A DNA stretch of 64,000 nt from Patescibacteria group bacterium (GCA_041661685.1 JBAZTY010000001.1:192691-256690); one strand, 5' to 3'; positions 29,636 to 44,826 are shown, counted from the stretch's first letter. A program made the numbers and translations. Notes: generated by a model from the letters alone, not told the origin.

Positions 29636-29741
29636 CTGGTGATTAGTGCGCCTAGAAGCTATTACGTATTTTTTTAGACTATGCTATACTAATTTAGTAT
29701 TTAAATTTATTAAGTTAATTATTATTATAAAAGAAAAAATT

Positions 29742-30449
29742 ATGCGCCAATTTCACCAAAAAATGATTGCCGGTTTGAATCTCTCTAGGATTTCAGCGGC
29801 AGTGTTGATTGTCTTTACCGGCCTGAACCTAGGTTTTTATGCTCTTGCGTCCAGCACCAGCGAGTTTACGCAGGCTATCAACCCGGGGACTCTAAGTACT
29901 GATATTGTTAATGGATCGTATGTTTCTGTTTCTTCTCCGACTTTCAGCATGAGCGCTGTTCCTTTCAGTTTCTCGTGTCAAGCATCGACCGGGACATTCG
30001 GCTCTGCTACGCAGCAGATATATGTTAAGAATCCAGATGCATCTGACACTGGCTGGACCCTAACTCTGGCTGGATCTTCTCCGACCGCTTACTGGGATAG
30101 CATTACTAGTTCTTTGGATTTCGATTTTAATGACTCGGCTTCCAGCGGCTGCTCTGACGGCGCCGACACCGATATCTTAAAAGGACAGATGACCGTAGAT
30201 CCATCAATAGCTACTCTAGCGAAAGGAGCCTGCGCTGCTTGCGACACGGCTAATATCACTAAAGGAAATTCTACAGCTTTCGCTGAAGGAGCGACCGATA
30301 GCGTTACATTGCTAACGGCTGCAGCTGGTTCTAGTGATATCGGTGATTGGACTTTACAGGGCGTTAGTGTCAGTCAGACTATTCCCGGAGAACAGCCAGC
30401 CGCGAATGATTACAAAGTAAATCTATCTTTAAGTATTGTTGCAAACTAA
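29742..30449 (+). CDS. Small secreted protein consisting of a signal peptide plus a WxL-like domain (true start ATG 29742)
   Basis: Signal/TM ISAAVLIVFTGLNLGFYALA. DASDTGWTLTLAG and DIGDWTLQG motifs. Its C-terminal ~185 aa are homologous to the C-terminus of the giant protein. Confidence 0.6.
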   Translation: MRQFHQKMIAGLNLSRISAAVLIVFTGLNLGFYALASSTSEFTQAINPGTLSTDIVNGSYVSVSSPTFSMSAVPFSFSCQASTGTFGSATQQIYVKNPDASDTGWTLTLAGSSPTAYWDSITSSLDFDFNDSASSGCSDGADTDILKGQMTVDPSIATLAKGACAACDTANITKGNSTAFAEGATDSVTLLTAAAGSSDIGDWTLQGVSVSQTIPGEQPAANDYKVNLSLSIVAN

Positions 30450-30467
30450 GCTAACAATCCTACTAAT

Positions 30468-31631
30468 ATGTTAAAATGTCATTTCCTCCGTAATCGCCAG
30501 ATAACGATTAATGGGGCTTATTTAGTTTTGTTTTCGTTGCTTTTTGTCTTTCCAGTCATTCAGGCTAAGGCAGTCGAATACGGAGGAATCGGCGGACGGC
30601 CGGCTTATCCCCGAACGGATAACCCGCGCACTGAATCTATCTTCATCCATACGCTCAAACCCGGAGATATTCAGAAAGAGGGCGTCTTATTAGTAAATAA
30701 TGCCGCCGAAAAAAAGACTTTATTAGTTTATGGAGTAGATTCCGTAGTTTCTTCCGGTGGAGCCTTTGCTTGCCGACAAATGTCTGAACCGAAAGGAAGC
30801 GTCGGCTCTTGGATAAAACTCGAAAAGAATGAAGTCGTGCTTAATCCTGGCGCCAATGACCTTGTGCCATTTACAATCGAAGTGCCTCAGACCGCTGGCG
30901 TCGGGGAACACAACGGCTGCATTGTCATTCAAGAGAAAAAAGAAGACTCATCCGGACAGGCCGGCGTTAACCTAAGCTTTAGAACCGGCCTAAGAGTCGC
31001 TATCTCTATACCAGGAGAAATCGTTAGGAAGTTGGAGATAACAGAGTTCAGGATCACTAAAGAAGATAATGGCAACATCTTGCTAAGTCCGACCATCAAG
31101 AACTCTGGCAATGTCTCTGTCGATACTAATATTGATGTGACTACTAAAAATATCTTCGGCGGCGCTTATTTAAAACAGGGCGGGGAATTTCCGATTCTGC
31201 GTGACCAGAGTTCAGATTGGAATTTTGAAATCAAGAAGCCCTTTTGGGGCGGATTTTATAGATCAAGCCTTAGAGTCGAATATCAGGAGGATTTGAGCAT
31301 TGAAATCGGTAAAAACTCGAATCAACCGAAAACCGTCTTAACCGGGGAAACTATAACTTTTTTTAGTTTTCCAAAACCCTTGGCTCTAATGGTCGAATTA
31401 CTATTTTTAATCGTTGGCGTTATCATGACGTTCTTGTGGAGAGTTTATAATAAAAGAAAGCAGTGGATTAAAAAGTCATGGAAGGAAACGGAAATAAAAT
31501 CCGGCGAAGACATAAAATCATTAGCTGATCGCCTGGAAGTATCCTGGAGATTGCTCGCTAAGGTCAATAAGCTGCAAGCCCCTTATACGCTCAAGCCGGG
31601 ACAGAAATTAAAGGTTCCTCCCCGTCCCTAA
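30468..31631 (+). CDS. DUF916/DUF3324-like cell-surface protein with C-terminal TM anchor and terminal LysM domain
   Basis: Signal peptide. PAYPRTDNPRTESIFIHTLKPGDIQKEGVLLVNNAAEKKTLLVYGVDS resembles DUF916. The second beta-domain (LEITEFRITKEDNGNILLSPTIKNSGNVSVD) resembles DUF3324. TM LALMVELLFLIVGVIMTFLW is followed by a basic stretch. LysM: IKSGEDIKSLADRLEVSWRLLAKVNKLQAPYTLKPGQKLKVP. Confidence 0.6.
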   Translation: MLKCHFLRNRQITINGAYLVLFSLLFVFPVIQAKAVEYGGIGGRPAYPRTDNPRTESIFIHTLKPGDIQKEGVLLVNNAAEKKTLLVYGVDSVVSSGGAFACRQMSEPKGSVGSWIKLEKNEVVLNPGANDLVPFTIEVPQTAGVGEHNGCIVIQEKKEDSSGQAGVNLSFRTGLRVAISIPGEIVRKLEITEFRITKEDNGNILLSPTIKNSGNVSVDTNIDVTTKNIFGGAYLKQGGEFPILRDQSSDWNFEIKKPFWGGFYRSSLRVEYQEDLSIEIGKNSNQPKTVLTGETITFFSFPKPLALMVELLFLIVGVIMTFLWRVYNKRKQWIKKSWKETEIKSGEDIKSLADRLEVSWRLLAKVNKLQAPYTLKPGQKLKVPPRP

Positions 31632-31637
31632 TATTTT

Positions 31638-32624
31638 ATGAATAAAAATAACGTTACCCGGGAGCAGATTTCTTTTAAGAAACCCTGGCATAAAGATTGG
31701 GTTAAGATTTTTTTGATTGTCTTGTTGCTGTCTAATTTGGCTACTATCGGCATATTAATAAATAAAAATAAGTTGGCTAAGCAGCTGCAGGAGGCGAAAA
31801 AATACCCTCTCCTGGACTTTTCTCGAAATTTCATCGATCAAGATAATTTCCTGAGCAGTATCGAGCCGATAAGAAAATCAATGAAGGAAGCCGTCGCCAA
31901 ATATGAGGCGCAAGGGAATAGGATTAGCGTTTATTTTGAATTCTTAAATACCGGAGCGAATATCTCTATTAATCAAGAAGAGCGTTTCTGGCCGGCTAGC
32001 TTAAGCAAGATGCCGACCGCGCTCGCGGTCATGAAGAAAGTAGAAAACGGGGAATGGAAGCTGAGTAATGAACTGGTGCTTTTCGCGGAAGACCAGGATT
32101 CTCGTTTCGGGGACATCTATCTAAAGACTCCGGGGACGCGCTTCACGATTGAAGAGCTCTTGAAAGAAACTTTGATAAACTCCGATAATACCGCTCATAA
32201 AATATTGGTGCGCAATTTATCTAGTGAAGATTACACGAAATCCTTTGAAGCTTTAGGGTTAGAAGAGTTATACGATGATAACTATGATATCACTGCCAAA
32301 GAATATTCCCGTATTTTTCGCGCTCTATACAGCGCCAGTTATCTTAATCGGGATAATTCCCAAAAATTATTATCATGGCTCACGCAGACGAGCTTTGATG
32401 AATTTATCGGCTCGGGAATACCGACTACGACATTATTTGCTCATAAAATCGGGGAGGAGTACAAGGAGGTCGTTTTCTTGGACTCCGGCATCTTTTATGT
32501 CGCTGGCCGCCCCTGCCTAATTACAGTCATGGCGGAGGTGAAGGACGGCGGCGGCGTCGGGAGCGCCCAGAAAATAATGGGGGAACTGTCAAAAATAGCC
32601 TATGATTACGTGGCGAATAAATAA
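31638..32624 (+). CDS. Membrane-anchored serine hydrolase of the class A beta-lactamase / PBP fold
   Basis: N-terminal TM. SxxK (PASLSKMP), SDN (INSDNTA), and a KTG-like HKIGE. Confidence 0.65.
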   Translation: MNKNNVTREQISFKKPWHKDWVKIFLIVLLLSNLATIGILINKNKLAKQLQEAKKYPLLDFSRNFIDQDNFLSSIEPIRKSMKEAVAKYEAQGNRISVYFEFLNTGANISINQEERFWPASLSKMPTALAVMKKVENGEWKLSNELVLFAEDQDSRFGDIYLKTPGTRFTIEELLKETLINSDNTAHKILVRNLSSEDYTKSFEALGLEELYDDNYDITAKEYSRIFRALYSASYLNRDNSQKLLSWLTQTSFDEFIGSGIPTTTLFAHKIGEEYKEVVFLDSGIFYVAGRPCLITVMAEVKDGGGVGSAQKIMGELSKIAYDYVANK

Positions 32625-35600
32625 AAAAATAAAGACGGTGATGATCGGTATGTTGATCGGCGTCTTTTTTTTATCCGGCTTTCCTTCTAACGTTTTCTTG
32701 GATAAATTAGAGGATTACCTAACCGATAAGAATATAGTCGATTCTCTTTATCATGCCATGAGAGATCCTAATGTCATAGATAGAGGCATGTCCGGACTAA
32801 TGGATGCTAAGACGCCTCAGGCTAATGCCGGAAATTTTCAAATCCAAACCGGCTATTACATCGGAAACGGCGGCGCTAAACAAATCAGCGGACTAGGATT
32901 CTCGCCGCAAATGATCCTCATAAAAGCCAACGATACCGGCGGCACCGGCGCGATCATGAAAACGACAGTCATGCCTAATCTCAATAGCTCATATCTCGGC
33001 GTCGCGACTGCTGACGTCGCAGCGGCCGTGCTGCTCAATCCCGACGGCTTTACTATCTCAGGCGTGACTACCAATACTGCTAATTCCCGCTATACTTGGA
33101 CAGCTTTTGCCGGTTCTGATTGTAGCGCCAGTGGCAATTTCTGCGTCGGCACCTATACCGGCACGGGCACTTCACCCCGATCGGTTACCGTCGGCTTCCA
33201 GCCCGATATGGTCATCGTGAAAGCGGCGACCGCAGTCGCCCCCAATTGGCGTTCATCGGCGATGCCCACTAATTACGGACAGCATTTTATGGCCACGAAC
33301 CAGACTACCGACGGTACTATGTATACCACTCTGGATTCTACTGGTTTTACTGTTGGCAGCGTGAATAATACCAGCGCGACCATCTACTATTATGTCGCTT
33401 TCAAGAATACGGCCGGTTCTATCAATGTCGGCACCTATGCCGGCACGGGCGTAGCTAAGAATGTCACCGGAGTCGGTTTTACCCCTAATTTTGCTTTGAC
33501 TAAGGCGGCGGCGCCGACGACAGCGACGGCGGCAATATATAATAATACGGAATCATATGGTAACTCCAGCAGCTACTTTACCGATACGGTCAATGTTGTC
33601 GGCGGCATCACCGGATTGGATAGCGACGGCTTCGGCGTCGGCACCGGAGCAATGGCTAATATCTCGGGGGCGACCTTCTATTACGCCGCTTTCGGTGGCG
33701 CTTCTGCTGTCAGGAATTCCAGCGGTACTTTTCAGATAGCGCGCGGAACTTACACAGGGACTGGTATAAATCGAGCGATTGATAATCTCGGTTTTAGACC
33801 GGATCTCGTGATCATCAAGGGGAATACGGCGACGGCTGGAGTTTTTAGAACCCGGCTGATGGGCGGAGACCACAGCGCTTATCTCGATGCGGCGACAGCT
33901 AACCTCACCGCCGCCATCACCTCTTTGAATCCTGACGGATTTACTGTTGGCACTGGCGCAACCACGAATAGCGCCGGCGTCACTTATTATTGGACTGCCT
34001 ATGGCAACGCCTGGAATCCGGAAACTAATTCCGGATCATCCGATTTCTATATTGGTGCTTATTATGGCAACGGAATCGATAATCGCAATGTCATCCGTCT
34101 GCCTTTTCAGGCTGACATGGTCGCGACTAAAAGAAACAGCACTACTGGCGGTGCTTTCCGCACCTCGGCGCATTCCGGCGATCTCAGCAGCTTTTTTGCG
34201 GCGACTGCGGAGGCGGCCAATAATATCCAGGTTCTCAATCCCGACGGATTCCAAATCGGCACGGGCACAAATGTCAATGCAGCCGCCAGTCTTTATCATT
34301 ATTTCGGCTTTAAATCCGGAGCTAATTTCGCCGTCGGCACTTATTCCGGCACCGGAGCCGCTAAAGATGTCACTACTGTCGGCTTCCAGCCTGATAATGT
34401 CTGGGTGAAACAGACTGGGGCGGTGCGAGGCGTGTCGCGGCATAGTAATCAATCCGGAGACGCCGCCTTGCCCTTCATTAACGTCGCCTCTATCACCGGA
34501 GCGTTCACCGGCCTGATCTCCACCGGCTTTTCTATCGGCGCTGGCGCGGAAACTAATACCTTGGGGACGAATAATTACCGTTATGCGGCGTGGCGGGCTA
34601 ATACTAGCCCGACGACTCCAAGCTATAAGATCCAAACCGGCTATTACATCGGAAACGGCGGCGCTAAACAAATCAGCGGACTAGGATTCTCGCCGCAAAT
34701 GATCCTCATAAAAGCCAACGATGCCGGCGGCACCGGCGCGATCATGAAAACGACAGTCATGCCTAATCTCAATAGCTCATATCTCGGCGTCGCGACTGCT
34801 GACGTCGCAGCGGCCGTGCTGCTCAATCCCGACGGCTTTACTATCTCAGGCGTGACTACCAATACTGCTAATTCCCGCTATACTTGGACAGCTTTTGCCG
34901 GTTCTGATTGTAGCGCCAGTGGCAATTTCTGCGTCGGCACCTATACCGGCACGGGCACTTCACCCCGATCGGTTACCGTCGGCTTCCAGCCCGATATGGT
35001 CATCGTGAAAGCGGCGACCGCAGTCGCCCCCAATTGGCGTTCATCGGCGATGCCCACTAATTACGGACAGCATTTTATGGCCACGAACCAGACTACCGAC
35101 GGTACTATGTATACCACTCTGGATTCTACTGGTTTTACTGTTGGCAGCGTGAATAATACCAGCGCGACCATCTACTATTATGTCGCTTTCAAGAATACGG
35201 CCGGTTCTATCAATGTCGGCACCTATGCCGGCACGGGCGTAGCTAAGAATGTCACCGGAGTCGGTTTTACCCCTAATTTTGCTTTGACTAAGGCGGCGGC
35301 GCCGACGACAGCGACGGCGGCAATATATAATAATACGGAATCATATGGTAACTCCAGCAGCTACTTTACCGATACGGTCAATGTTGTCGGCGGCATCACC
35401 GGATTGGATAGCGACGGCTTCGGCGTCGGCACCGGAGCAATGGCTAATATCTCGGGGGCGACCTTCTATTACGCCGCTTTCGGTGGCGCTTCTGCTGTCA
35501 GGAATTCCAGCGGTACTTTTCAGATAGCGCGCGGAACTTACACAGGGACTGGTATAAATCGAGCGATTGATAATCTCGGTTTTAGACCGGATCTCGTGAT

Positions 35601-37401
35601 CATCAAGGGGAATACGGCGACGGCTGGAGTTTTTAGAACCCGGCTGATGGGCGGAGACCACAGCGCTTATCTCGATGCGGCGACAGCTAACCTCACCGCC
35701 GCCATCACCTCTTTGAATCCTGACGGATTTACTGTTGGCACTGGCGCAACCACGAATAGCGCCGGCGTCACTTATTATTGGACTGCCTATGGCAACGCCT
35801 GGAATCCGGAAACTAATTCCGGATCATCCGATTTCTATATTGGTGCTTATTATGGCAACGGAATCGATAATCGCAATGTCATCCGTCTGCCTTTTCAGGC
35901 TGACATGGTCGCGACTAAAAGAAACAGCACTACTGGCGGTGCTTTCCGCACCTCGGCGCATTCCGGCGATCTCAGCAGCTTTTTTGCGGCGACTGCGGAG
36001 GCGGCCAATAATATCCAGGTTCTCAATCCCGACGGATTCCAAATCGGCACGGGCACAAATGTCAATGCAGCCGCCAGTCTTTATCATTATTTCGGCTTTA
36101 AATCCGGAGCTAATTTCGCCGTCGGCACTTATTCCGGCACCGGAGCCGCTAAAGATGTCACTACTGTCGGCTTCCAGCCTGATAATGTCTGGGTGAAACA
36201 GACTGGGGCGGTGCGAGGCGTGTCGCGGCATAGTAATCAATCCGGAGACGCCGCCTTGCCCTTCATTAACGTCGCCTCTATCACCGGAGCGTTCACCGGC
36301 CTGATCTCCACCGGCTTTTCTATCGGCGCTGGCGCGGAAACTAATACCTTGGGGACGAATAATTACCGTTATGCGGCGTGGCGGTTGCCCGATATCGCTA
36401 ATATTTCAATAGCCGCTTACGGTTCGCAAATCGCATCTCTCGGCATACCTTCAGCCGGACAATATCTCGGCGGCGCCTTTACTTTTATCAGAAGCGGCGG
36501 CTCGGCCAATATCACAAGCCTAACATTATCAGAAAATGGTACAGTCAACGCCTCTTCCTATATCTCCGAACTTACTTTGAAATATGAAATCGCCGACACG
36601 TGCAACTACGACGGCACCGAGGCTACCTTCGGCAACACCGCCTCTTTCGCCTCCGAGAAGGCAACGGTCAGCGGCAATATGCCAGTCGGCAGCGCGCAAG
36701 TCTGTCTTTATCCAATCATCACTGTCGGGACTGGAGTAGATAATGGCAGCACGCTTGATCTCAGCATCGATTCTTTAAGCGACATTTTAATCTCTTCCGG
36801 CTCCGGATCAGGTTCTTTCCCCGTAAATATCAGCGGCTTGACTAATCTGATTTCCGGATCGCTGACGGTTGATATCGTTGATAGTGATGGCAGTACTATC
36901 GCTAACCCATCTTTAGCCATGGATCCAATAAATTTTGCCTTTATCTCGCAAACCGCCAGCGGGACGCTAGGAGTCTCTTCTAAAAAAATCCGAATAGATA
37001 ATAATTCCGGTAATGCGCAATGGACGCTATCTATCGCGGCTACGGGGGGTAATACCAGTGTTTGGAGTGGCGCCGGAAATACCTACGATTTTAACGATAT
37101 CAGCGCCGGCGGTAATGATGGGGCAGATCTTGATTCTTATGGCGGCCAAATGAATTTCAATCCCGGGATCGCCGTCATCACCCCCGAGAGCGGCTGTGAA
37201 ACTACTGGCTTAACTCTAGGCAGTCCTTCATCTTTTGCGGAGGGAGTTCTCGACTCCGTCAACATATTAAGCGCTAACTCTTCAGCTCAGACCGGCTGTT
37301 ATTGGGATTTGACCGGAATCGGAATAAGCCAAACGATTCCCGCAGAACAAGTGACTGATAATTATTCGATTAATATGACTTTAACTATAACCGCCATATA
37401 A
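32602..37401 (+). CDS. Giant secreted repeat protein (about 1590 aa) with 12 ~100-aa modules and a C-terminal WxL-like domain (alternative start ATG 32641)
   Basis: N-terminal TM/signal MIGMLIGVFFLSGF. Twelve modules follow the pattern GxYxGxG..V.GVGFxPDxVxxK...LNPDGFTVG...YYYxAF. The C-terminal region is homologous to ORF 29742-30449 (..QWTLSIAA.., ..SQTIPAEQ..). Confidence 0.85.
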   Translation: MITWRINKKIKTVMIGMLIGVFFLSGFPSNVFLDKLEDYLTDKNIVDSLYHAMRDPNVIDRGMSGLMDAKTPQANAGNFQIQTGYYIGNGGAKQISGLGFSPQMILIKANDTGGTGAIMKTTVMPNLNSSYLGVATADVAAAVLLNPDGFTISGVTTNTANSRYTWTAFAGSDCSASGNFCVGTYTGTGTSPRSVTVGFQPDMVIVKAATAVAPNWRSSAMPTNYGQHFMATNQTTDGTMYTTLDSTGFTVGSVNNTSATIYYYVAFKNTAGSINVGTYAGTGVAKNVTGVGFTPNFALTKAAAPTTATAAIYNNTESYGNSSSYFTDTVNVVGGITGLDSDGFGVGTGAMANISGATFYYAAFGGASAVRNSSGTFQIARGTYTGTGINRAIDNLGFRPDLVIIKGNTATAGVFRTRLMGGDHSAYLDAATANLTAAITSLNPDGFTVGTGATTNSAGVTYYWTAYGNAWNPETNSGSSDFYIGAYYGNGIDNRNVIRLPFQADMVATKRNSTTGGAFRTSAHSGDLSSFFAATAEAANNIQVLNPDGFQIGTGTNVNAAASLYHYFGFKSGANFAVGTYSGTGAAKDVTTVGFQPDNVWVKQTGAVRGVSRHSNQSGDAALPFINVASITGAFTGLISTGFSIGAGAETNTLGTNNYRYAAWRANTSPTTPSYKIQTGYYIGNGGAKQISGLGFSPQMILIKANDAGGTGAIMKTTVMPNLNSSYLGVATADVAAAVLLNPDGFTISGVTTNTANSRYTWTAFAGSDCSASGNFCVGTYTGTGTSPRSVTVGFQPDMVIVKAATAVAPNWRSSAMPTNYGQHFMATNQTTDGTMYTTLDSTGFTVGSVNNTSATIYYYVAFKNTAGSINVGTYAGTGVAKNVTGVGFTPNFALTKAAAPTTATAAIYNNTESYGNSSSYFTDTVNVVGGITGLDSDGFGVGTGAMANISGATFYYAAFGGASAVRNSSGTFQIARGTYTGTGINRAIDNLGFRPDLVIIKGNTATAGVFRTRLMGGDHSAYLDAATANLTAAITSLNPDGFTVGTGATTNSAGVTYYWTAYGNAWNPETNSGSSDFYIGAYYGNGIDNRNVIRLPFQADMVATKRNSTTGGAFRTSAHSGDLSSFFAATAEAANNIQVLNPDGFQIGTGTNVNAAASLYHYFGFKSGANFAVGTYSGTGAAKDVTTVGFQPDNVWVKQTGAVRGVSRHSNQSGDAALPFINVASITGAFTGLISTGFSIGAGAETNTLGTNNYRYAAWRLPDIANISIAAYGSQIASLGIPSAGQYLGGAFTFIRSGGSANITSLTLSENGTVNASSYISELTLKYEIADTCNYDGTEATFGNTASFASEKATVSGNMPVGSAQVCLYPIITVGTGVDNGSTLDLSIDSLSDILISSGSGSGSFPVNISGLTNLISGSLTVDIVDSDGSTIANPSLAMDPINFAFISQTASGTLGVSSKKIRIDNNSGNAQWTLSIAATGGNTSVWSGAGNTYDFNDISAGGNDGADLDSYGGQMNFNPGIAVITPESGCETTGLTLGSPSSFAEGVLDSVNILSANSSAQTGCYWDLTGIGISQTIPAEQVTDNYSINMTLTITAI
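32842..36384 (+). repeat. In-frame tandem duplication: two 1755-bp copies (32842-34596 and 34630-36384) separated by a 33-bp linker, period 1788 bp
   Basis: Direct comparison at offset 1788. I found a single mismatch (A at 32935 versus G at 34723, Thr/Ala). All six-frame ORFs in the two copies are duplicated at exactly +1788 (for example 33553..33873 and 35341..35661). Confidence 0.95.
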
Positions 37402-37404
37402 TTC

Positions 37405-38439
37405 TTGCCCGTGCGCTATAAAAACAAAAAAACAAGAATCTTCTTCCTTTCCTGCTGGCTGACCGCCGTAGCAGCTATTTTTATATCGGCGATCATGATC
37501 GACACAGCCAAGGCGGCTTCTTACGCCGGCCTAAAGATAAGCATTACTCCCGGACCAGAATGTTATGACGGGAAAGATAACGACAGCGACGGCAAGATGG
37601 ATTATCCGGCTGATTCAGATTGCGATTCCACGAATGATAACAGTGAATTTCCGCTTATCGTCAACAATGTAAGCAGCGGAGGGGGCGGAGGAAGCATCGC
37701 GCCGATAACCAGTGTCACCTTATCCGGCTATGCTTATCCTTTAAATAAGATAACTATCTTAAAAGACGGGCAAATCGCCTTAACTACTATCGCCGGACCC
37801 GATGCAATCTTTAATGCCGTCCTGACCGGACTAACAGAAGGGTTTTATAATTTTTCCATATACAGCGAAGATATCTACGGATTAAAATCAGGTGCCTTCA
37901 CGTTCCCAGTTTACATAACTAAGGGCGCCAGCACTAATATCGGCGGCATCTTTCTCGCCCCGACTATAAAATTAGATAAAGAAAGCGTTAAAAGCGGAGA
38001 TAATATTACGATTCTCGGGCAGAGTGCGCCTAACGCCGAAATAAATATTACTGTCAATTCAGAAAAGGAGAATATCATCAAAACTAAAACCGACCAGAAC
38101 GGCGTCTATTCTTATGATTTCGATACCGCCCTCTTGGAACTCGGAGATCATAGCGCCAAATCCAAATCAACGTTGAAGAAGCAAGTCAGTTCCTATAGCA
38201 AAATAGTCGGCTTCAAGGTCTTTGAGGATAAAGCCTCCGCGGCCGCTTATGAGGAAGAGAAGCAAGGGGAAACGGCGAAGGGCGACTTCAATAATGATAA
38301 CAAGGTCGATCTGATAGATTTTTCTATCCTGTCCTATTGGTACAAGAAACCGCAGCCGCCGACGATAGTGGACATGAATAAGGACGGCCGCATAAATATC
38401 ATAGATTTTTCTATCCTAGCTTTTAGCTGGACAGGTTGA
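37405..38439 (+). CDS. Secreted protein with Cys/Asp-rich metal-binding-like motif, Ig-like domains and a C-terminal dockerin-like module
   Basis: Signal/TM. CYDGKDNDSDGKMDYPADSDCDS. The C-terminus has two EF-hand-like repeats, GDFNNDNKVDLIDFSIL and DMNKDGRINIIDFSIL (dockerin type I pattern). Confidence 0.7.
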   Translation: MPVRYKNKKTRIFFLSCWLTAVAAIFISAIMIDTAKAASYAGLKISITPGPECYDGKDNDSDGKMDYPADSDCDSTNDNSEFPLIVNNVSSGGGGGSIAPITSVTLSGYAYPLNKITILKDGQIALTTIAGPDAIFNAVLTGLTEGFYNFSIYSEDIYGLKSGAFTFPVYITKGASTNIGGIFLAPTIKLDKESVKSGDNITILGQSAPNAEINITVNSEKENIIKTKTDQNGVYSYDFDTALLELGDHSAKSKSTLKKQVSSYSKIVGFKVFEDKASAAAYEEEKQGETAKGDFNNDNKVDLIDFSILSYWYKKPQPPTIVDMNKDGRINIIDFSILAFSWTG

Positions 38440-38445
38440 GGCCAT

Positions 38446-39384
38446 ATGAAAAAACGAGAAAATATCCGAATACTTTTATTTTTCAGCACTCTGATGATGT
38501 TAGGTCTTTTTTCTTTCCCTAAAAGAAGCGAAGCGGCTAGGCTATTCTATTCTTGGCCGGAAGGGGAGATATGTAAAGGGCAGGAGATAAGGTTAGATAT
38601 TTTTATTGATACTGAGGAGAGGGATATCAACGCGCTAGAAGGAAAGATAAGCCTCGCGGGCGAAGCGCTGGATCTAAGAGAAATAAGCGAGGGTAATTCT
38701 TTTATTAATTTCTGGGTAGAGACGCCTCGGATAGAAAATCAAGAAATAAGATTCGCTGGCATCATCCCGGGAGGGTATAGCGGCCGAAAAGGCTTATTAT
38801 TTTCCATCTTCTTGAGAGCGGGGGCGTCCGGCCAAGGGGCGTTAAGATTGGAAGACGCCCGGGCGTTCGCTAATGACGGCTTAGGCACGGAGCTCCGGCT
38901 TAATTATTATGAAGCTGATATCAATATCAGAGAAACGCCAGCCCAAGGACAGGTCTCCGAATCTCCTACAATAATCGATAATGATGCTCCAGAAAAATTT
39001 CCCATTCTCCTGGCGCGCGATCCCCTTATCTTTGAAAATCTCTGGTTTTTAACTTTCGCCACTCAAGATAAAGGCTCGGGAATAAAATATTTCGAAGTCA
39101 GAGAAGAGAATAGCTTGGATGGAGATGGCGGGGACGACTGGGAAAAAGCCGACAGCCCTTACCTTATCAAGGACCAAGATCTAACCAGCCGCATCACCAT
39201 CAAGGCGGTAGACCGCGCTGGCAATGAGACTCTCAGCGTCCTAGAGGCGCCGAATCAAGCATTGATTAGCCATAATAAAGCTAAAAATGATATAATAAAA
39301 ATAGTTTTAATCACCTTAGCCCTAGGGCTGATAATTTTTATATTTCTGCTATGGAAAAAAGCTCGAAAAAAATCTACAAAATAA
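38446..39384 (+). CDS. Cohesin-like domain protein with C-terminal TM anchor
   Basis: Signal peptide. Cohesin-like beta-sandwich (IRLDIFIDTEERDINALEGKISLAGEALDLREISEGNSFINFW...GLLFSIFLRAGASGQGALRLEDARAFANDGLGTEL). An Ig-like module (DAPEKF...DKGSGIKYFEV...AVDRAGNET). C-terminal TM followed by KKARKK. Confidence 0.65.
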   Translation: MKKRENIRILLFFSTLMMLGLFSFPKRSEAARLFYSWPEGEICKGQEIRLDIFIDTEERDINALEGKISLAGEALDLREISEGNSFINFWVETPRIENQEIRFAGIIPGGYSGRKGLLFSIFLRAGASGQGALRLEDARAFANDGLGTELRLNYYEADINIRETPAQGQVSESPTIIDNDAPEKFPILLARDPLIFENLWFLTFATQDKGSGIKYFEVREENSLDGDGGDDWEKADSPYLIKDQDLTSRITIKAVDRAGNETLSVLEAPNQALISHNKAKNDIIKIVLITLALGLIIFIFLLWKKARKKSTK

Positions 39385-40937
39385 TATTGTCCATCGCCAT
39401 CTTTATTTTTTCTGCCGTTAACGCCCAGGCCGCGACGCTTTTCTTGTCCCCGGCGTCTTCTTCTTATTTTAGCGACAAAACCTTCACGGTGGGCGTTTAT
39501 GTGACGAGCAGCGACCAAAGTATTAACGCGGTGTCGGGTATCGCCTCTTTTCCGACAGACAAGTTGGAAGTCGTCTCCATATCTAAATCAGGCAGTCTTT
39601 TTAATTTCTGGGCCCAAGAGCCTTCTTTTTCTAATAGCAGCGGAAAAGTCAGCTTCGAGGGCGTGATCCTTAATCCCGGCTTTAAGGGGTCTTACGGGAA
39701 ACTACTAACCATAAGCTTTAAGGCTAAAGGAATCGGCCAAGCGCCAATATCCTTTAGTTCAGCGTCCGTCTTGGCTAACGACGGGCTAGGCACTAACGTG
39801 CTCTCTGGAACAGGTGGCGCTGAAATCTCAATCAAGAAAGTAGTCGAAGAAGAAAAAGTAGGAAAGGAAGAAATAAACGCTGAAATCACAGCCTCCTTGA
39901 GTAGCTCAACGGCTGCTTATCCGGTAGTCCCGAAAATAACCTCCAAGACTAACCCCGATCCGGAGAAATGGTATAATATCGACGTTCCTTATTTTCTCTG
40001 GGACCTTCCCGAGGGGGTGATCAGCGTCAGCCTGCTCATTGATCAGAATAAGCATTCCGCTCCTCTGATATCCTACATGCCCGCCATCAGGGAAAAAGCG
40101 ATAACCGGTCTGGATGATGGTTCCTGGTATCTGCATATAGCCTTTAAATACGCGGACGGGACTAGCACTGTCCAGCATTTCCCCTTCAATGTCGATAAGA
40201 CCGCTCCAGAGTCGCTCGGCGTCTCCATCATCGCCGATAATGGCAATAATATAGGCGTCAGAAGCTTCATCATCGCCGGCGTAGACAAGGAATCAGGCAT
40301 CGCCGATTATGAGATAACGATAGACAACCAAGAACCGATCAAATGGGGAAATTATAGCGACAATATCTTCCAGACCCCGCTCCTTGATTCCGGAGAACAT
40401 ACAATCAAGGTGCGAGTCTATGATAAAGCTGGGAATTATAAAGAGGAATCGCAAAAATTCACTGTGACTTCTATCCGGATTCCGGAAATAGACGCTTATC
40501 CGGAAAAAATAGGCTATAATTCGGAGCTGACGATCAGCGGCCGGTCTATACCAGAAAACCATGTGATAATAACTTTTGATCGCCAGGGGAAATATCAAAG
40601 AAATTATCTAGTGCTATGCGATCAGGCTGGCAATTTTACCTTTGTCCTGGATCGCCTTATTCCGGGTGAATACAGTTTTTACGCTCGGACTATAGATACT
40701 AAAGGCAATAAGAGCCAGGCCACCTCTATTTATAATTTCAGAGCAAAATACTTCTTTGGAATGATCTGGCCTTATTTTACGGGGATATTCTTGTTTTTAA
40801 TCTTGGCGTTGCTGATTATAAGCGGGCGAATCCTGCTCAACCGAAAAAATAATCGGTCTTGGGCCGGGAAAGAGACAGCGCGCCTTCTTCCGATAATCAA
40901 AAAAAAGACGAACAAGAGGCCAAAAAAACTTGTTTGA
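39351..40937 (+). CDS. Cohesin-like domain protein with Ig-like domains and C-terminal TM anchor (paralog of 38446-39384)
   Basis: Signal peptide ending in AQA. Cohesin-like FTVGVYVTSSDQSINAVSGIASFPTDKLEVVSISKSGSLFNFW...KLLTISFKAKGIGQAPISFSSASVLANDGLGTNVL. DKTAPES...DKESGIADYEI...VYDKAGNYKE. C-terminal TM plus a basic tail. Confidence 0.65.
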   Translation: MEKSSKKIYKIILSIAIFIFSAVNAQAATLFLSPASSSYFSDKTFTVGVYVTSSDQSINAVSGIASFPTDKLEVVSISKSGSLFNFWAQEPSFSNSSGKVSFEGVILNPGFKGSYGKLLTISFKAKGIGQAPISFSSASVLANDGLGTNVLSGTGGAEISIKKVVEEEKVGKEEINAEITASLSSSTAAYPVVPKITSKTNPDPEKWYNIDVPYFLWDLPEGVISVSLLIDQNKHSAPLISYMPAIREKAITGLDDGSWYLHIAFKYADGTSTVQHFPFNVDKTAPESLGVSIIADNGNNIGVRSFIIAGVDKESGIADYEITIDNQEPIKWGNYSDNIFQTPLLDSGEHTIKVRVYDKAGNYKEESQKFTVTSIRIPEIDAYPEKIGYNSELTISGRSIPENHVIITFDRQGKYQRNYLVLCDQAGNFTFVLDRLIPGEYSFYARTIDTKGNKSQATSIYNFRAKYFFGMIWPYFTGIFLFLILALLIISGRILLNRKNNRSWAGKETARLLPIIKKKTNKRPKKLV

Positions 40938-40954
40938 ATAATAATATTTAATCT

Positions 40955-42862
40955 ATGGTCAGTAAAAAGAAAAAATGGCTTATCGCGATAGCTTTCGTTA
41001 CGGTCGTTACGGCCTTATTTTTTATCTTTAAAAAAAAGCCGCAAAGCGAATATACGACCGTCGATCTCAAGAAGGGAACTCTCATCCAGACCGTCACTGA
41101 AGTCGGCACAGTTAAGGCAAGTAAGGAATTAGAATTGAATTTCGCGCTCAGCGGCAAGGTTAATAAAATAGCGGCTAAAGTCGGAGACCTGGTCAAAAAA
41201 GATGCTGTCTTAATGGAACTAGACTTAAATTCGCTACTTCTCAAGGAAAAGGAAGCGGCCTCGAGCATGGATGTGGCGCAAGCTAATTTAGATAAGCTCA
41301 TGAAAGGAGCTACTACCCAAGATATTGCTATCAGCGCCGCTCAAGAAGCTCAAGCCAAGAGTGCCTACGCGTCGGCAGAAAATGACTTGGCAAAAACCAA
41401 AGAATTGACCGCGGAAAATTTAAGTCAGGCCGCCAAGAAACTCGCCGATCTGGAATCATCCGCTAGCACCGATATTACGCCGCAAGAACAGGCCGTCGCG
41501 ACCGCCCAGACTAACCTGGCCAATACTAAAACTAATGCTCAGCAGACTACAGATAACAGCCGCGATGGCTTGATAAACACGGCTGACGCCAAAATAAGCA
41601 TCGCTAATAGCGCCCTAGATTACATCAATCGCCTCTTGGACGACGATGACTTAAAAAATACTTTTAGCGTTAAAGATTCGACGTCTCTACTCAACACTAA
41701 AAATGATTATGTCTTAGCGACGAACGCGAAGATCCCGGCCGTCACCGCTTTAATAACGGCCAAAGCTTTCTCGACTGAACCGAATTTGAAGAACTTAGTC
41801 AGTTTAAGCTTGGATTACCTTAAGATAACCAATCAGACAGCTAACGATTGCTTTAAAAGCCTAGAAAATACGGTCGTCTCTTCGGTCTTGCCGCAAGCGA
41901 CTCTAGACGCTTATAAGACCAATGTCAGCGCTAATCTAACGGCCGTCAGTACTGGGATAAGCGCCATCCAGACAGCCGACTATACCTTCCGTAATGCCTT
42001 GCTCTCTTATGACACTAGCATCGCTTCGGCGACTGACGCTTTGAATTCCGCCCAGGTAAACCTCGAAGACGCCTTAAAATCCGCTCGCAACGCCTATAAT
42101 TCTGCGAAATTAAGCGGCGAGAGCCAAGTAGCCGCCGCCCAAGCGAAACTGAACGCAGCCAAACAGGCTTGGGATGTCGCCCAAAAACAGCTGACCAGCA
42201 TCAAGACGCCAGCGCGGACCGAAGATATTAATCTAGCTAAAGCGCAATTGGCGCAAGCTCAGGCCAATCTCGATCTGATCAAGAAACAGGAATCGGAAAG
42301 CCAGATTATTGCTCCGATGGACGGTCAGATCTCTAAAATAAATTACGAGATTGGCGAACAGGTCTCTTCCAAGGCGGCCTTAGCCATGATTACGGAGAAT
42401 AATTTCGAAATCGAAGTCGATATCTCAGAAGCCGACATTTCCAAAGTTAAGATTAGCGACCGGGTCGTGATCGATTTCGATGCCTTCGGCGAGGCTAGAA
42501 AATTCAACGGTTTGGTCTATTTCATTGAACCGGCGGCAACCGTGATCCAAGACATAACTTATTATAAGGTCAAGATCAGCCTAGTCGACGCGCCAGAAAC
42601 TCTCAAGGATATCAAAGCCGGCATGACCGCCAATGTCATTGTCACTACCGATCAAAAAGATAATGTCTTCTTGGCGCCGGCGCGAGCGGTTATTGATAAG
42701 AACGGGTCGGGTAAAGTCGTCCGCATTTTAGAAAATAATAATACGGTTACAGAAATTCTGGTAACAGCGGGAATATCCGGCAATGACGGCTTAATGGAAA
42801 TAAGCGGCGAGGGCTTAACCGAGGGACAGAAGATAATCACCTTCATCAAAACCGTCAATTAA
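40955..42862 (+). CDS. HlyD/MacA-type membrane-fusion adaptor with an unusually long coiled-coil (635 aa)
   Basis: N-terminal TM, a lipoyl-like segment, about 350 aa of A/Q/L-rich coiled coil, then IIAPMDGQISKINYEIGEQV and KAGMTANVIV beta-barrel motifs. Confidence 0.8.
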   Translation: MVSKKKKWLIAIAFVTVVTALFFIFKKKPQSEYTTVDLKKGTLIQTVTEVGTVKASKELELNFALSGKVNKIAAKVGDLVKKDAVLMELDLNSLLLKEKEAASSMDVAQANLDKLMKGATTQDIAISAAQEAQAKSAYASAENDLAKTKELTAENLSQAAKKLADLESSASTDITPQEQAVATAQTNLANTKTNAQQTTDNSRDGLINTADAKISIANSALDYINRLLDDDDLKNTFSVKDSTSLLNTKNDYVLATNAKIPAVTALITAKAFSTEPNLKNLVSLSLDYLKITNQTANDCFKSLENTVVSSVLPQATLDAYKTNVSANLTAVSTGISAIQTADYTFRNALLSYDTSIASATDALNSAQVNLEDALKSARNAYNSAKLSGESQVAAAQAKLNAAKQAWDVAQKQLTSIKTPARTEDINLAKAQLAQAQANLDLIKKQESESQIIAPMDGQISKINYEIGEQVSSKAALAMITENNFEIEVDISEADISKVKISDRVVIDFDAFGEARKFNGLVYFIEPAATVIQDITYYKVKISLVDAPETLKDIKAGMTANVIVTTDQKDNVFLAPARAVIDKNGSGKVVRILENNNTVTEILVTAGISGNDGLMEISGEGLTEGQKIITFIKTVN

Positions 42863-42863
42863 T

Positions 42864-43577
42864 ATGCTTATCCGCATTAAAAATCTGCATAAAGATTATG
42901 GCAGCGGCGAAGAGTTGACTTCGGTCCTCCACGGCCTGAATTTCGAGATAGCCAAGGGGGAATTCGTTTCCATTATGGGGCCGTCCGGGTCAGGCAAATC
43001 AACCCTGATGCATATCCTCGGATTATTAGACAGCCCGACTACGGGCCAATATTTTTTAGAAGGGAAAAACGTCACGCATCTCGATGATGACAGCCTGGCG
43101 CAACTGCGCAACCGGGAAATCGGCTTCGTCTTCCAATCTTTCAATCTCTTGCCGCGCACGACCGTGCTCGATAACGTTAAATTGCCGCTCATATATTCCG
43201 ACGAGAAGATAGACGCCGATAAGCGCGCCCGGGAAGTCTTGGAAAGCGTCGGCCTCGGCCATCGCCTGGATTATTATACCAACCAGATTTCCGGCGGCGA
43301 AAAACAACGCGTCGCTATCGCCCGCGCCCTCGTCAATAATCCGAGCGTAATCTTCGCGGACGAACCGACCGGCAACCTTGATTCTAAATCAGGCACACAA
43401 ATTATGGAGATACTCCAGAAACTTAACGATGAGGGAAATACTATTATCCTAGTTACACATGAAACCTATACCGCGGAACACGCTAAAAGAATCATTAAGA
43501 TAAGGGACGGCGAGATCATCAGCGACGAAAAGATCGCTCATCGTCGCCGCGCCCATGATGGCGAATTATTAAAATAA
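42864..43577 (+). CDS. ABC transporter ATP-binding protein (MacB class)
   Basis: [39 protein letters not shown]. Confidence 0.9.
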
Positions 43578-44824
43578 TGCGTTTCCCTTTAAACCAATCG
43601 ATAAAGATTTCGACAGCGGCGCTTCTAACTAATAAAGCTAGAAGCTTTTTGACTATGCTGGGAATCATCATCGGCGTGGGCGCGGTCGTCATGATTATGT
43701 CATTAGGCGCAGGCGCGCAGAGCCTGATTATCGGCCAAATAAAGGGTTTAGGCGGAAATCTCATCGGTGTTCTGCCGGGAAAATCAGAGACTGACGGGCC
43801 GCCGGCTTCAGTCATGGGCGTCGCGATTACGACTTTAGTGGAGGATGACCTGGAGGCTATTCGCCGGCAAGTGCCGAATATCATCGGAGCCGTTGGCTAT
43901 TCGCGCAATCTAGCAACCGCTAGCTGGGGACAAAATAATTACGAGACTAATCTCAACGGCTGTTCCGTGGATTACTTGAAAGTCGAGGGTGGAGAAGTGG
44001 GCGTCGGCCGGTTCTTTACAGCCGAAGAAGACCGCGATATGGCCAAAGTCGCCGTTCTCGGCGCGACCGTCAAGCAGGAATTATTCGGCGATTCCGATGC
44101 TGTCGGACGTATTATTAAGATCAAGAAGCAGCCGTTTGAAGTCATCGGCGTGATGGCGCCGCGCGGCACAGTCGCTTTTGTCAATTACGACGACCAGATT
44201 AATATACCCTTGAAAACCGCGCAAAAAGTCATCAACGGCGTCAATCATCTCAGTTTCATCCGCATTAAAGCCGATAGTGAAAAAAGCGTCGATGAGGTAA
44301 TGGCGGAAACAACGCTTCTTCTCCGCGATCGTCACGATATTAAAAATCCCAGCGGCCAGGATGATGATTTCTCCGTCCGCAGCATGGCGCAAGCGCTCGA
44401 TATGATCATAACGATCACTAATGCGCTTAAATACTTTCTAATCGCCATGGCCGCTATTTCACTGGTTGTCGGCGGTATCGGCATCATGAATATCATGCTC
44501 ATCAGCGTTAGCGAAAGGACTAAAGAAATCGGCTTGCGCAAGGCCATTGGCGCTAATAACCGCCATATCATCTGGCAATTTCTGATCGAGTCGATGACGC
44601 TCACTTTGATCGGCGGCGCGGCCGGTACTGTCCTGGGAACTATCGGCTCGTGGCTCATCTCTCTAGTCGTGAATGATCTCGGCTATGATTATCAATTTAT
44701 CATCTCCATCTCTTCAGTGTTGCTCGCTTTGTCCGTCTCGACTCTCATCGGACTGATCTTCGGTTTATACCCGGCGCGCCAAGCCAGCCGATTAGAGCCG
44801 GTCGAGGCTTTAAGCTACGAATAA
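43577..44824 (+). CDS. ABC transporter permease, MacB/FtsX type (permease 1)
   Basis: N-terminal TM plus a MacB periplasmic-core-like domain and a C-terminal FtsX 3-TM bundle (ERTKEIGLRKAIGA). Confidence 0.85.
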   Translation: MRFPLNQSIKISTAALLTNKARSFLTMLGIIIGVGAVVMIMSLGAGAQSLIIGQIKGLGGNLIGVLPGKSETDGPPASVMGVAITTLVEDDLEAIRRQVPNIIGAVGYSRNLATASWGQNNYETNLNGCSVDYLKVEGGEVGVGRFFTAEEDRDMAKVAVLGATVKQELFGDSDAVGRIIKIKKQPFEVIGVMAPRGTVAFVNYDDQINIPLKTAQKVINGVNHLSFIRIKADSEKSVDEVMAETTLLLRDRHDIKNPSGQDDDFSVRSMAQALDMIITITNALKYFLIAMAAISLVVGGIGIMNIMLISVSERTKEIGLRKAIGANNRHIIWQFLIESMTLTLIGGAAGTVLGTIGSWLISLVVNDLGYDYQFIISISSVLLALSVSTLIGLIFGLYPARQASRLEPVEALSYE

Positions 44825-44826
44825 TT

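Follow-up and report, generated by a model that had tools for sequence, protein, structure and literature searches.

The locus under study lies within a window of 64,000 nucleotides (the whole stretch of DNA that was analysed) and consists of three consecutive genes, here termed A, B and C, which follow the gene of a giant surface protein (Table 1). The three ORFs and the 34-nt overlap between B and C were present as described in the initial annotation. With this overlap and intergenic gaps of 3 nt between the giant gene and A and of 6 nt between A and B, the four genes display an operon-like packing. The start of A in NCBI is placed two codons later, giving a protein of 342 aa. In the window, C is followed by genes for a HlyD/MacA-like adaptor, an ABC ATPase and FtsX permeases.

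Table 1. Features of the A-B-C locus and of the genes upstream; positions are those of the window.
Feature	Position	Strand	Basis or remark
Small secreted protein, shared W-x-L-motif domain only	29646..30449	+	Alignment; invariant W137, W150, W235
WxLIP-like protein, C-terminal LysM	30468..31631	+	Pfam LysM 9.2e-9; WxLIP_PGBD 2.8e-4, below cutoff
Giant surface protein, DUF7483 repeats, ends 3 nt before A	32602..37401	+	Pfam DUF7483 5.8e-57
ORF A	37405..38439	+	344 aa, TTG start; dockerin protein, either secreted or anchored at its N-terminus
Cys-bounded acidic loop CYDGKDNDSDGKMDYPADSDC (A aa 53-73)	37561..37623	+	Variable 'head' module of the A family
Tandem pair of Ig/FN3-like beta-sandwich domains in A (~aa 103-183, 194-273)	37711..38223	+	AlphaFold pLDDT >93
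Dockerin module (A aa 292-344), two Ca-loop + helix segments	38278..38439	+	Pfam PF00404
Dockerin repeat 1 GDFNNDNKVDLIDFSIL	38281-38331	+	A aa 293-309
Dockerin repeat 2 DMNKDGRINIIDFSIL	38371-38418	+	A aa 323-338, 16-mer
ORF B	38446..39384	+	Short membrane-anchored cohesin protein
Predicted cohesin-fold domain of B (aa 31-165)	38536..38940	+	AlphaFold pLDDT 90-97 here
Ig-like (OmpL47/Big_13-type) domain of B, DK-G-SGI ... DRAGN motifs (aa 187-266)	39004..39243	+	NCBIfam barrel_OmpL47 E 2.2e-4; beta domain in model
C-terminal TM helix of B (aa 279-307), then KKARKKSTK tail	39280..39366	+	Hydropathy; model helix 271-311
ORF C	39351..40937	+	Long membrane-anchored cohesin protein
Putative cohesin-type domain of C (aa 27-165)	39429..39845	+	Paralogy to B cohesin
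Big_13/OmpL47-type, then Ig-like (Y_Y_Y/Big_6-like) domain of C	40206..40739	+	Pfam Big_13 E 1.1e-10, Y_Y_Y 8.7e-6; NCBIfam barrel_OmpL47 7.6e-10
C-terminal TM helix of C (aa 467-499), then basic cytoplasmic tail	40749..40847	+	Hydropathy

The protein encoded by A is built from a hydrophobic N-terminus, a Cys/Asp-rich tip, a poly-Gly linker, two Ig-like domains and a C-terminal dockerin. The dockerin identity, already proposed by the initial annotation together with the appropriate profile search, was borne out, as the module scored above the curated threshold of Pfam Dockerin_1 (PF00404; 37.5 bits vs a cutoff of 22.9, E 2.7e-9) with aa 292-338 aligned to model positions 1-52 of 57. In addition, a profile of the A-family dockerins retrieved solved type I dockerins from the PDB, the best being 2y3n_B (E 8.8e-5), so that the profiles support the assignment of the module as a type I dockerin. 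Both EF-hand-like repeats that had been noticed earlier were present, the second being a 16-mer rather than a 17-mer and the gap between them measuring 13 instead of about 14 aa. Type I dockerins consist of two duplicated segments of ~22 residues, a Ca2+ loop and a helix in each, with a short linker in between. The predicted Ca loops, DFNNDNKVDLID (aa 294-305) and DMNKDGRINIID (aa 323-334), both fit the canonical pattern D1, N3, D5, D/N9, D12, which was conserved in 59 sequences. In both repeats of these sequences D5, D12 and S14 were invariant and N3 occurred in at least 91%, and the identity between the two repeats averaged 0.57. An AlphaFold model of the dockerin, calculated without Ca2+ or a partner, reached a pLDDT of 53-69, and DSSP assigned short strands and no helices, unlike the canonical three-helix fold with its paired Ca2+ loops.

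The remainder of A is far more variable at its tip. The N-terminal Cys motif pointed out earlier occurs as listed in Table 1, the pattern given for it having been short by one 'x', and it matched the NCBIfam acidic double-disulfide repeat weakly (E 0.041). More than 359 orthologues of A were found in Patescibacteria, and among them this head is missing or exchanged for other modules, including 6-Cys ones. Across the family, mean pairwise identity was 0.31 in the head/tip and 0.63 in the dockerin, the most conserved part of A. Hydropathy analysis revealed a single hydrophobic segment (aa 10-37), which may stay uncleaved, in which case A itself would be anchored in the membrane. With Foldseek, the Ig domains matched adhesin stalks, i.e., Bap (7dm0), MpIBP (4p99), SiiE (2yn3) and intimin. 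Neither a catalytic nor a carbohydrate-binding domain was identified in A by Pfam, AlphaFold or Foldseek, which yielded Ig-like domains only; as judged from the models, the cargo carried by A is made of adhesin-type Ig/FN3 stalk domains and is non-enzymatic.

ORF B comprises a signal peptide, a cohesin, one Ig-like domain, a TM helix and a basic tail, with hydrophobic segments at aa 6-25 and 279-307. When its AlphaFold model (overall pLDDT 91.8) was compared with the PDB by Foldseek, all of the first 45 matches were cohesins, with a target-normalised TM of 0.6-0.8 and an rmsd of about 3 Å over about 140 residues; they included 2w1n (E 2.5e-11) and 2vo8 (target-normalised TM 0.80). The model supports a cohesin fold for the N-terminal domain of B, predicted as a nine-stranded jelly-roll superposing on solved cohesins. 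At rank 46 followed the CLIPPER domain 9ifr, a cohesin fold in a non-dockerin context. A B-family profile retrieved only R. flavefaciens cohesins from the PDB, and these weakly (E 0.064-0.78).

ORF C, named 'cohesin domain-containing protein' in NCBI, comprises a signal peptide, a cohesin, a W-rich domain, a Big_13 domain, an Ig-like domain, a TM helix and a basic tail. Its hydrophobic segments are located at aa 7-33 and 467-499, and in most C orthologues the charged tail is longer (~80 aa). The C-terminal TM and basic tail that the initial annotation ascribed to B and C were thus both seen by hydropathy. The N-terminal domains of B and C were 28% identical over 153 aa (E 8e-19 in a single two-sequence comparison) and have the blocks INA..G, NFW..P, F.G and ANDGLGT in common, and the cohB HMM matched C with an E of 4e-29; residues conserved in both families map to strands 3, 5 and 6 of the model and to the loop that follows its strand 8. 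Cohesins bind dockerins on their 8-3-6-5 sheet. The DxxAPE...DK(G/E)SGI...D(R/K)AGN module, previously described as shared by the two proteins, was recovered as a second HSP (E 0.025) and corresponds to NCBIfam OmpL47-type domains in B and C and to Pfam Big_13 in C.

The initial annotation had called for a Cohesin profile search of B and C. The window's own B and C gave no match to Pfam Cohesin (PF00963) at E up to 1, but their orthologues did: at E <0.01 the profile matched 23 of 45 sampled C orthologues (best 2.9e-8) and three of 44 B relatives (best 1.4e-5), the samples being skewed toward annotated members, and a precomputed PF00963 match was present for 27 of the best 120 C relatives. Paralogy to B suggests that the N-terminal domain of C is likewise of the cohesin type. 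The B model, the B/C paralogy and the matching C orthologues all point to the cohesin-like N-terminal domains that had been proposed. The earlier reading was to be given up if neither profile matches nor an interface were found; profile matches exist for both the dockerin and the cohesin family.

The three genes form a cassette that is conserved across Patescibacteria and is not peculiar to one genome. Relatives of C were found in at least 582 Patescibacteria species genomes, and clustering of the cassette at 50% identity gave about 3,000 clusters. At 55 of the 59 loci from these genomes that had room upstream, A, B and C occurred in this order on the same strand, and at a 56th locus B and C were joined in one frame. 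Such in-frame B-C fusions are recurrent and keep the membrane topology consistent; 17 of the top 150 representatives were matched in two to four stretches, and a B-C fusion was present in all five that were read. According to Kimura distances, the dockerin (0.51) and the cohesin of C (0.59) are the slowest modules of the cassette, the rest of B and C ranging from 1.05 to 1.34. Mirror-tree and partial Mantel analyses gave no sign that the dockerin co-evolves specifically with one or the other cohesin (r = -0.01 and 0.07).

We consider it rather likely that A, B and C belong together in a cohesin-dockerin module of the patescibacterial cell surface, conserved and non-enzymatic, in which the dockerin of A would be bound by the neighbouring cohesins. 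It appears unlikely that they are co-regulated envelope proteins without such contact, the 'dockerin' representing EF-hand-like Ca2+ loops that stabilise A, and the cohesin folds serving as spacers or as binders of peptidoglycan, the giant protein or a host ligand. The low confidence and non-canonical predicted secondary structure of the dockerin model, the failure of B and C to match Pfam Cohesin directly, the missing co-evolution signal and the occurrence of cohesin folds in non-dockerin contexts such as CLIPPER would all agree with this. However, the Pfam dockerin match lies well above threshold, the best PDB matches are solved dockerins and the dockerin is the part of A that is conserved best; moreover, unless the proteins are partners, it is difficult to account for a dockerin gene directly upstream of two cohesin genes at 56 of 59 loci.

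Still less probable is that the dockerin of A and the cohesins of B and C each serve other partners, with B and C anchoring other dockerin proteins and A binding host-surface glycans. A dockerin protein standing alone is represented by SEML1_0315 of Southlakia epibionticum, an envelope protein with a dockerin domain that is essential by Tn-seq and has been speculated to target glycans (Wang et al. 2023, PMC10633639). By its description, SEML1_0315 resembles A as a CPR envelope protein made of Ig-like domains and bearing a dockerin, but it differs in its length of 927 aa and in being monocistronic, located between a tRNA gene and a hydrolase without adjacent cohesin genes (PMC10633639). Our census, which covered 64 kb of this genome, would also leave room for further partners; against this, the A-type dockerin was confined to A and these cohesin types to B/C-family ORFs, both in the 64-kb window and at 80 loci with 10-kb flanks (20-kb neighbourhoods in 80 genomes), and the strict three-gene synteny favours a self-contained set.

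The cassette is embedded in a larger surface-protein locus, usually just downstream of a giant surface protein. An ORF of at least 600 aa was located upstream of A at 34 of 43 loci, and a WxLIP-like gene was found near the cassette at 25 of 43. In the window, the C-terminal ~200 aa of the giant protein align with the small secreted protein further upstream, and this shared W-x-L domain had no match to Pfam WxL (PF13731) at E up to 1 or to the PDB at E up to 5. A WxLIP protein is characterised by DUF916/PGBD, DUF3324/HBD and a TM helix. The WxLIP-like protein of the window scored 21.4 bits on WxLIP_PGBD, the cutoff being 27.3, and DUF3324 was not detected in it; eight of 15 members of its family matched WxLIP_PGBD at E <0.05 (best 5.6e-8), and the family profile retrieved only EfmWxLIP1 (9i1y/9i25, E ~1e-3) from the PDB. 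The WxL clusters of Firmicutes consist of a small WxL, a large WxL and a WxLIP protein (Hassan et al. 2023, PMC10599100). Upstream of A the arrangement is comparable, with genes for a small shared-domain protein, a giant protein that carries this domain at its C-terminus and a WxLIP-like TM protein, but the shared domain itself matches neither Pfam WxL nor a solved structure, and the cohesin-dockerin trio lies outside the WxL cluster as defined by these authors (PMC10599100).

Among known cohesin proteins, B and C resemble OlpA/OlpC of C. thermocellum and ScaE of R. flavefaciens, in which a single cohesin on a cell-bound protein captures a dockerin partner, and in Foldseek the B model superposes on the single-cohesin scaffoldin cohesins 4dh2, 3ul4 and 2zf9. 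Scaffoldins of this type are attached through SLH modules or sortase and are not known to use a C-terminal TM helix; the partners they capture are enzymes, or other scaffoldins, that belong to a complex degrading polysaccharides. Unlike these anchoring scaffoldins, the present locus combines a pair of paralogous cohesin proteins with a single putative client that is non-enzymatic, and no CAZymes were found among the nearby ORFs scanned. The best structural matches to B are non-cellulosomal cohesins, namely those of C. perfringens GH84C/GH33 (2w1n, 2jh2, 2vo8) and of Archaeoglobus fulgidus (2xdh), whose cohesin-dockerin modules work outside cellulose degradation; as in B, the cohesin of 2w1n is followed by an FN3/Ig-like module. 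The C. perfringens modules are carried by secreted glycoside hydrolases or toxins, whereas here a membrane-anchored three-gene cassette extends across a phylum-level radiation.

Since cohesins and dockerins are classically cellulosomal, and since exporter genes follow C in the window, the cassette might be thought to be a minimal system of the cellulosome or amylosome type that degrades polysaccharides, or to serve the MacAB-like ABC exporter as an accessory. Both are highly improbable and were effectively refuted by the missing enzymes and the missing conservation: A lacks a catalytic or carbohydrate-binding domain and carries Ig-like domains only, B and C have one cohesin each, no glycoside hydrolase occurs within ~15 kb and neither a glycoside hydrolase nor a CBM was present among the larger ORFs scanned from 22.9 to 56.8 kb, and the exporter genes are not conserved beside the cassette in other genomes. 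The lack of glycoside hydrolases nearby and the non-cellulolytic character claimed in the initial annotation hold for the ORFs scanned and for the adhesin-stalk domains of A. The A-B-C cassette is probably a device for anchoring at the cell surface and not a cellulosome that degrades plant fibre.

The module identities, the membrane topology, the paralogy of B and C and the conserved synteny are results of the analysis, whereas binding, stoichiometry and a part in attachment are inferred. As an anchoring device, the cassette would most likely work as follows. The three genes would be co-transcribed and their products exported by Sec. B and C each cross the membrane once, the N-terminus facing outward and the C-terminus inward, and hold one N-terminal cohesin off the membrane, B on a short stalk of one Ig-like domain and C on a long one of three beta domains. 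The Ca2+-type dockerin of A would plug into the cohesin of C and/or B and thereby tether A non-covalently to the cell surface. The near-symmetry of the dockerin halves fits a dual binding mode, or binding of either cohesin in turn, better than binding of both at once. A may have partners besides B and C, and may itself not be their only client. With its place at the 3' end of a locus for surface proteins (giant fibre/adhesin, with or without a small shared-domain protein and a WxLIP-like protein), the module probably helps to build or anchor the envelope and the attachment apparatus of these episymbiotic bacteria.

A bolder version, to which we give little credence at this stage, is that the cassette is the membrane anchor of a widespread Patescibacteria surface apparatus, in which B and C act as a two-cohesin unit, as suggested by the recurrent natural B-C fusion, that catches A by its dockerin at two heights above the membrane, and the swappable tip of A couples this unit to the giant fibre/WxL-like layer or directly to the host cell. 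If this were true, the cassette would be central, and perhaps essential, to episymbiotic life, and it would be the first cohesin-dockerin system conserved across a whole radiation whose role is structural and not enzymatic.

How the ultra-small CPR/Patescibacteria build their surface and attach to hosts is largely obscure, and for most of their conserved envelope proteins no function has been assigned. The cassette is widespread, its modules belong to a well-understood biochemistry, the high-affinity Ca2+-dependent binding of cohesin and dockerin, and it is physically linked to giant adhesin-like genes; together, these properties provide a concrete, testable handle. With such a cassette, cohesin-dockerin biology would reach beyond the scaffolding of enzymes into a structural role anchored in the membrane. 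The cassette is also present in Ca. Microsyncoccus archaeolyticus, an archaeal parasite in enrichment culture.

Sequence and structure searches identified a dockerin at the C-terminus of ORF A and putative cohesin modules in the N-terminal parts of the adjacent ORFs B and C, the three genes being referred to here as the cassette. The tail of ORF A matched Pfam Dockerin_1 with 37.5 bits against a threshold of 22.9, bearing out the dockerin assignment of the initial annotation, and the best PDB matches of a profile built from 42 A orthologues were solved type I dockerins (2y3n_B, E 8.8e-5). Two EF-hand-like 17-mers some 14 residues apart had been described at this end of the protein; both segments are present, but the second is a 16-mer and the spacing is 13 residues. 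Both Ca2+ loops conform to D1-x-N3-x-D5-x-x-x-D/N9-x-x-D12, and among 59 sequences no variation occurs at D5, D12 and S14 of either repeat. Average identity between the two repeats is 57% in these sequences, so the dockerin has internal symmetry. In the AlphaFold model of A, the dockerin region reached a pLDDT of only 53-69 and was without canonical helices.

Coordinates of the cassette, of segments of ORF A and of upstream genes in the window
Feature	Position	Length	Remarks
Small protein	29646-30449		
WxLIP-like protein + LysM	30468-31631		
Giant protein, DUF7483	32602-37401		
ORF A	37405-38439	344 aa	TTG start; ORF call, NCBI start two codons later
A, N-terminal Cys motif	aa 53-73		CYDGKDNDSDGKMDYPADSDC
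A, first EF-hand-like segment	aa 293-309		GDFNNDNKVDLIDFSIL
A, second EF-hand-like segment	aa 323-338	16-mer	DMNKDGRINIIDFSIL
ORF B	38446-39384		
ORF C	39351-40937		

The centre of A consists of two Ig/FN3-like sandwiches, which were confidently modeled by AlphaFold and resemble the stalks of adhesins (Bap, SiiE, the MpIBP ice adhesin and intimin), and neither the structure model nor a fold search revealed a catalytic domain. Hydropathy analysis indicated an N-terminal signal-type segment and no C-terminal transmembrane (TM) helix. The Cys motif reported near the N-terminus is present, but the pattern first given for it was short by one residue. Mean pairwise identity within A was highest in the dockerin (0.63), the most conserved region, and dropped to 0.31 in the N-terminal Cys/Asp-rich head, the variable tip. 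Among orthologues P0241-P0357 (alignment A3) the tip is swapped between four alternatives, i.e., a 2-Cys acidic CxDGxDNDxDG loop in one or two copies, a 6-Cys CGNG..GE.CD form, a CGDGSC..E.C module, or nothing, while the Gly linker, the Ig domains and the dockerin are kept.

All three ORFs were recovered at the positions first described, their coordinates confirmed a 34-nt overlap between B and C, and hydropathy analysis agreed with the proposed N-terminal signal-type segment and C-terminal TM helix with basic tail in both proteins. Their N-terminal domains are 28% identical over 153 residues (E 8e-19), and the alignment contains every conserved block claimed previously. The DxxAPE...DK(G/E)SGI...D(R/K)AGN module thought to be common to both was recovered as a second, weaker alignment and corresponds to an OmpL47/Big_13-type Ig-like domain. 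The cohesin-like character proposed for the N-terminal domains was upheld by structure and by orthologues, but not by Pfam Cohesin searches with the window's own B and C, which gave no match even at E up to 1. Also single-sequence PDB searches with B and C yielded no cohesins, and a full-length C profile matched Ig-type domains only. The AlphaFold model of B (44 orthologues, mean pLDDT 91.8), however, folds like cohesins: the first 45 Foldseek matches in the PDB were all solved cohesins (target-normalised TM up to 0.80), with the cohesin-FN3 pair of C. perfringens GH84C (2w1n, E 2.5e-11) at the top and the non-cellulosomal A. fulgidus cohesin (2xdh) also among them. An HMM of the B module (cohB) matched the N-terminal domain of C at 4e-29, and by sequence similarity this domain is homologous to the predicted cohesin-fold domain of B. 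Pfam Cohesin was matched at E < 0.01 by 23 of 45 sampled C orthologues, and a precomputed PF00963 match was found in 27 of the best 120 C relatives, with the sampling behind these counts leaning toward annotated members. Automatic NCBI labels read 'dockerin type I domain-containing' for A, 'cohesin domain-containing' for C and 'hypothetical' for B.

Each of the three proteins has hundreds of relatives, and those with a named source all belong to Patescibacteria/CPR or to unclassified bacterial metagenome bins, except for one partial match labelled Thermodesulfobacteriota. Scanning one genome for each GTDB species gave at least 582 genomes with a relative of C, and an exhaustive profile search of 1.84 billion representatives returned 2,994 proteins at E <= 1e-30 and 6,630 at E <= 1e-10, giving a family size of about 3,000 clusters at 50% identity. 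To 80 loci from the GTDB species scan, many of which carry automated and unreliable organism titles, ORFs were assigned and scored by family HMMs. A, B and C followed each other in that order on one strand in 55 of the 59 loci with enough upstream sequence, and in a 56th (L015) B and C share one reading frame. The dockerin type of A was found in A only, and the cohesin types only in ORFs of the B and C families, throughout these 80 loci and the window (ORFs of at least 40 aa). A contig attributed to Ca. Microsyncoccus archaeolyticus, which parasitizes archaea and is maintained in enrichment culture, likewise contains the complete cassette; no expression data for these Microsyncoccus genes were found under the MCSN_074x locus tags.

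Seventeen of the best 150 representatives, proteins of 500-970 aa, matched in two to four stretches, and all five of these that were read are in-frame B-C fusions. The C-terminal TM helix of B runs directly into the signal peptide of C, so that membrane topology stays consistent and a three-TM protein displaying two cohesins is predicted. Such recurrent fusions suggest, by a Rosetta-stone-type argument from sequence, that B and C act together. Examples are P0363, P0365, P0371, P0405, P0466 and positions 6835-9468 of L015; some fused C parts are shortened to cohesin, Pro-rich linker and TM helix.

From the identity of the modules, the strict three-gene synteny, the exclusivity of the modules in their neighbourhood and the pattern of conservation we infer that the A dockerin binds the B and/or C cohesins. 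A mirror-tree/partial Mantel test compared 59 paired cassettes, in which the slowest-evolving modules were the dockerin and cohesin C. The test gave no signal of dockerin-specific co-evolution (partial r -0.01 for cohesin B, 0.07 for cohesin C), and the strongest partial correlation between proteins was that of A-core with cohesin C (r 0.43, p 0.019, uncorrected for multiple tests). We consider it unlikely that the modules do not interact at all, and still less likely that dockerin and cohesins work with other partners. The reading we favor, as a reasonably probable one, is that the cohesin anchors B and C tether A by its dockerin within a surface-protein locus. B and C would each display one cohesin, at different distances from the membrane, and A, held by the Ca2+-dependent dockerin, would project its Ig stalk with the variable tip, with a probable role of the unit in organising the envelope or attaching to hosts. 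Symmetric type I dockerins have two binding modes that use overlapping surfaces; therefore, use of B and C as alternatives, or binding in dual mode, appears more likely than a simultaneous 1:2 complex. No precedent for one dockerin binding two cohesins at the same time was found in the literature, and one cohesin binding two truncated dockerins (Duarte et al., 2025) represents the converse case.

An ORF of at least 600 aa lies upstream of A in 34 of the 43 loci with at least 4 kb of upstream sequence; in the window this is the giant DUF7483 surface protein. A family of WxLIP-like TM proteins is also located upstream in 25 of the 43 and adjoins A in 18. Pfam WxLIP_PGBD was matched by 8 of 15 members of this family (best 5.6e-8), and the sole PDB matches of the family profile were E. 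faecium EfmWxLIP1. In addition, a gene for a small secreted protein made up solely of the C-terminal domain of the giant protein is present at many loci. The same three-part arrangement characterizes the WxL clusters of Firmicutes, in which a WxLIP accompanies two WxL proteins, one small and one large (Hassan et al., 2023, PMC10599100). However, the domain shared by small and giant proteins matched neither Pfam WxL nor any solved structure; lacking profile support, it was not assigned to WxL, and the upstream genes are therefore regarded as WxL-cluster-like rather than as members. The trio occurs in the window (29646-31631 plus the giant gene) and in L001, L008, L009, L012 and L084; WxL clusters have been described from Firmicutes, and no report of them in CPR was found. 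From about 29.6 kb on, the window genes are co-directional and 3-17 nt apart or overlapping, and a consensus scan found no convincing terminator between them.

Directly downstream of C, at 40955-46086, the window carries a MacAB-like set, in which a 635-aa HlyD/MacA-type adaptor bearing a long insert is accompanied by an ABC ATPase and two FtsX/MacB-type permeases. As conservation of MacAB-like genes next to the cassette does not extend to other loci, a functional link to this exporter was rejected, and we regard an exporter-linked or cellulosomal cassette as very remote.

The closest known systems are single-cohesin anchoring scaffoldins, e.g., OlpA/OlpC and ScaE, the non-cellulosomal cohesin-dockerin pairs of C. 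perfringens and A. fulgidus and, for the genes upstream of A, WxL clusters. The cassette differs from these in its TM anchoring, its fixed operon-like arrangement, its conservation across the radiation and its two paralogous single-cohesin proteins with one non-enzymatic putative client. A literature search on cohesins and dockerins in Patescibacteria, CPR and Parcubacteria found no paper on the cassette. The essential dockerin-domain envelope protein SEML1_0315 of the saccharibacterium Southlakia epibionticum is the product of a 927-aa stand-alone gene (Wang et al., 2023, PMC10633639), and it was rejected as a probable orthologue on grounds of size and gene context.

Several further features of the loci were observed. 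Between the WxLIP-like and the giant gene, the window encodes a class-A-type beta-lactamase/PBP-like protein (31638-32624; Pfam Beta-lactamase2, E 6e-38), overlapping the giant start by 23 nt; none was called at the equivalent position in the gene tables of L001, L002 and L084. The giant ORF contains a tandem duplication with a period of 1,788 nt (596 aa) and copies starting at 32842 and 34630; a repeat tool found 300 nt with 100% identity, and at the protein level the repetition spans the whole period. As an independent assembly of the same organism has this gene called at 990 instead of 1,599 aa, the duplication is either strain variation or an assembly artefact. In a second locus type without WxLIP-like gene (L024, L034, L040, L041, L069, L076, L080, L083), a surface ORF exceeding 2,200 aa and running off the locus edge immediately precedes A; the tails of these ORFs are rich in Ser/Thr/Pro, and some of the ORFs contain LPLAGGTLTG-type motifs. 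L034 and L066 are separate cassettes located on two contigs of one metagenome-assembled genome (ERP119705_co3_578), reflecting either two copies in some genomes or a mixed bin. Finally, the B relatives P0183, P0185, P0197, P0206, P0227 and P0237 were called as fusions with a protein of the GxxExxY/23S-rRNA-intervening-sequence type (PF13366, PF05635), and the gap between A and B is about 400 nt in several loci (L014, L070, L073 and L082), which together suggests the occasional insertion of a small gene between these two.
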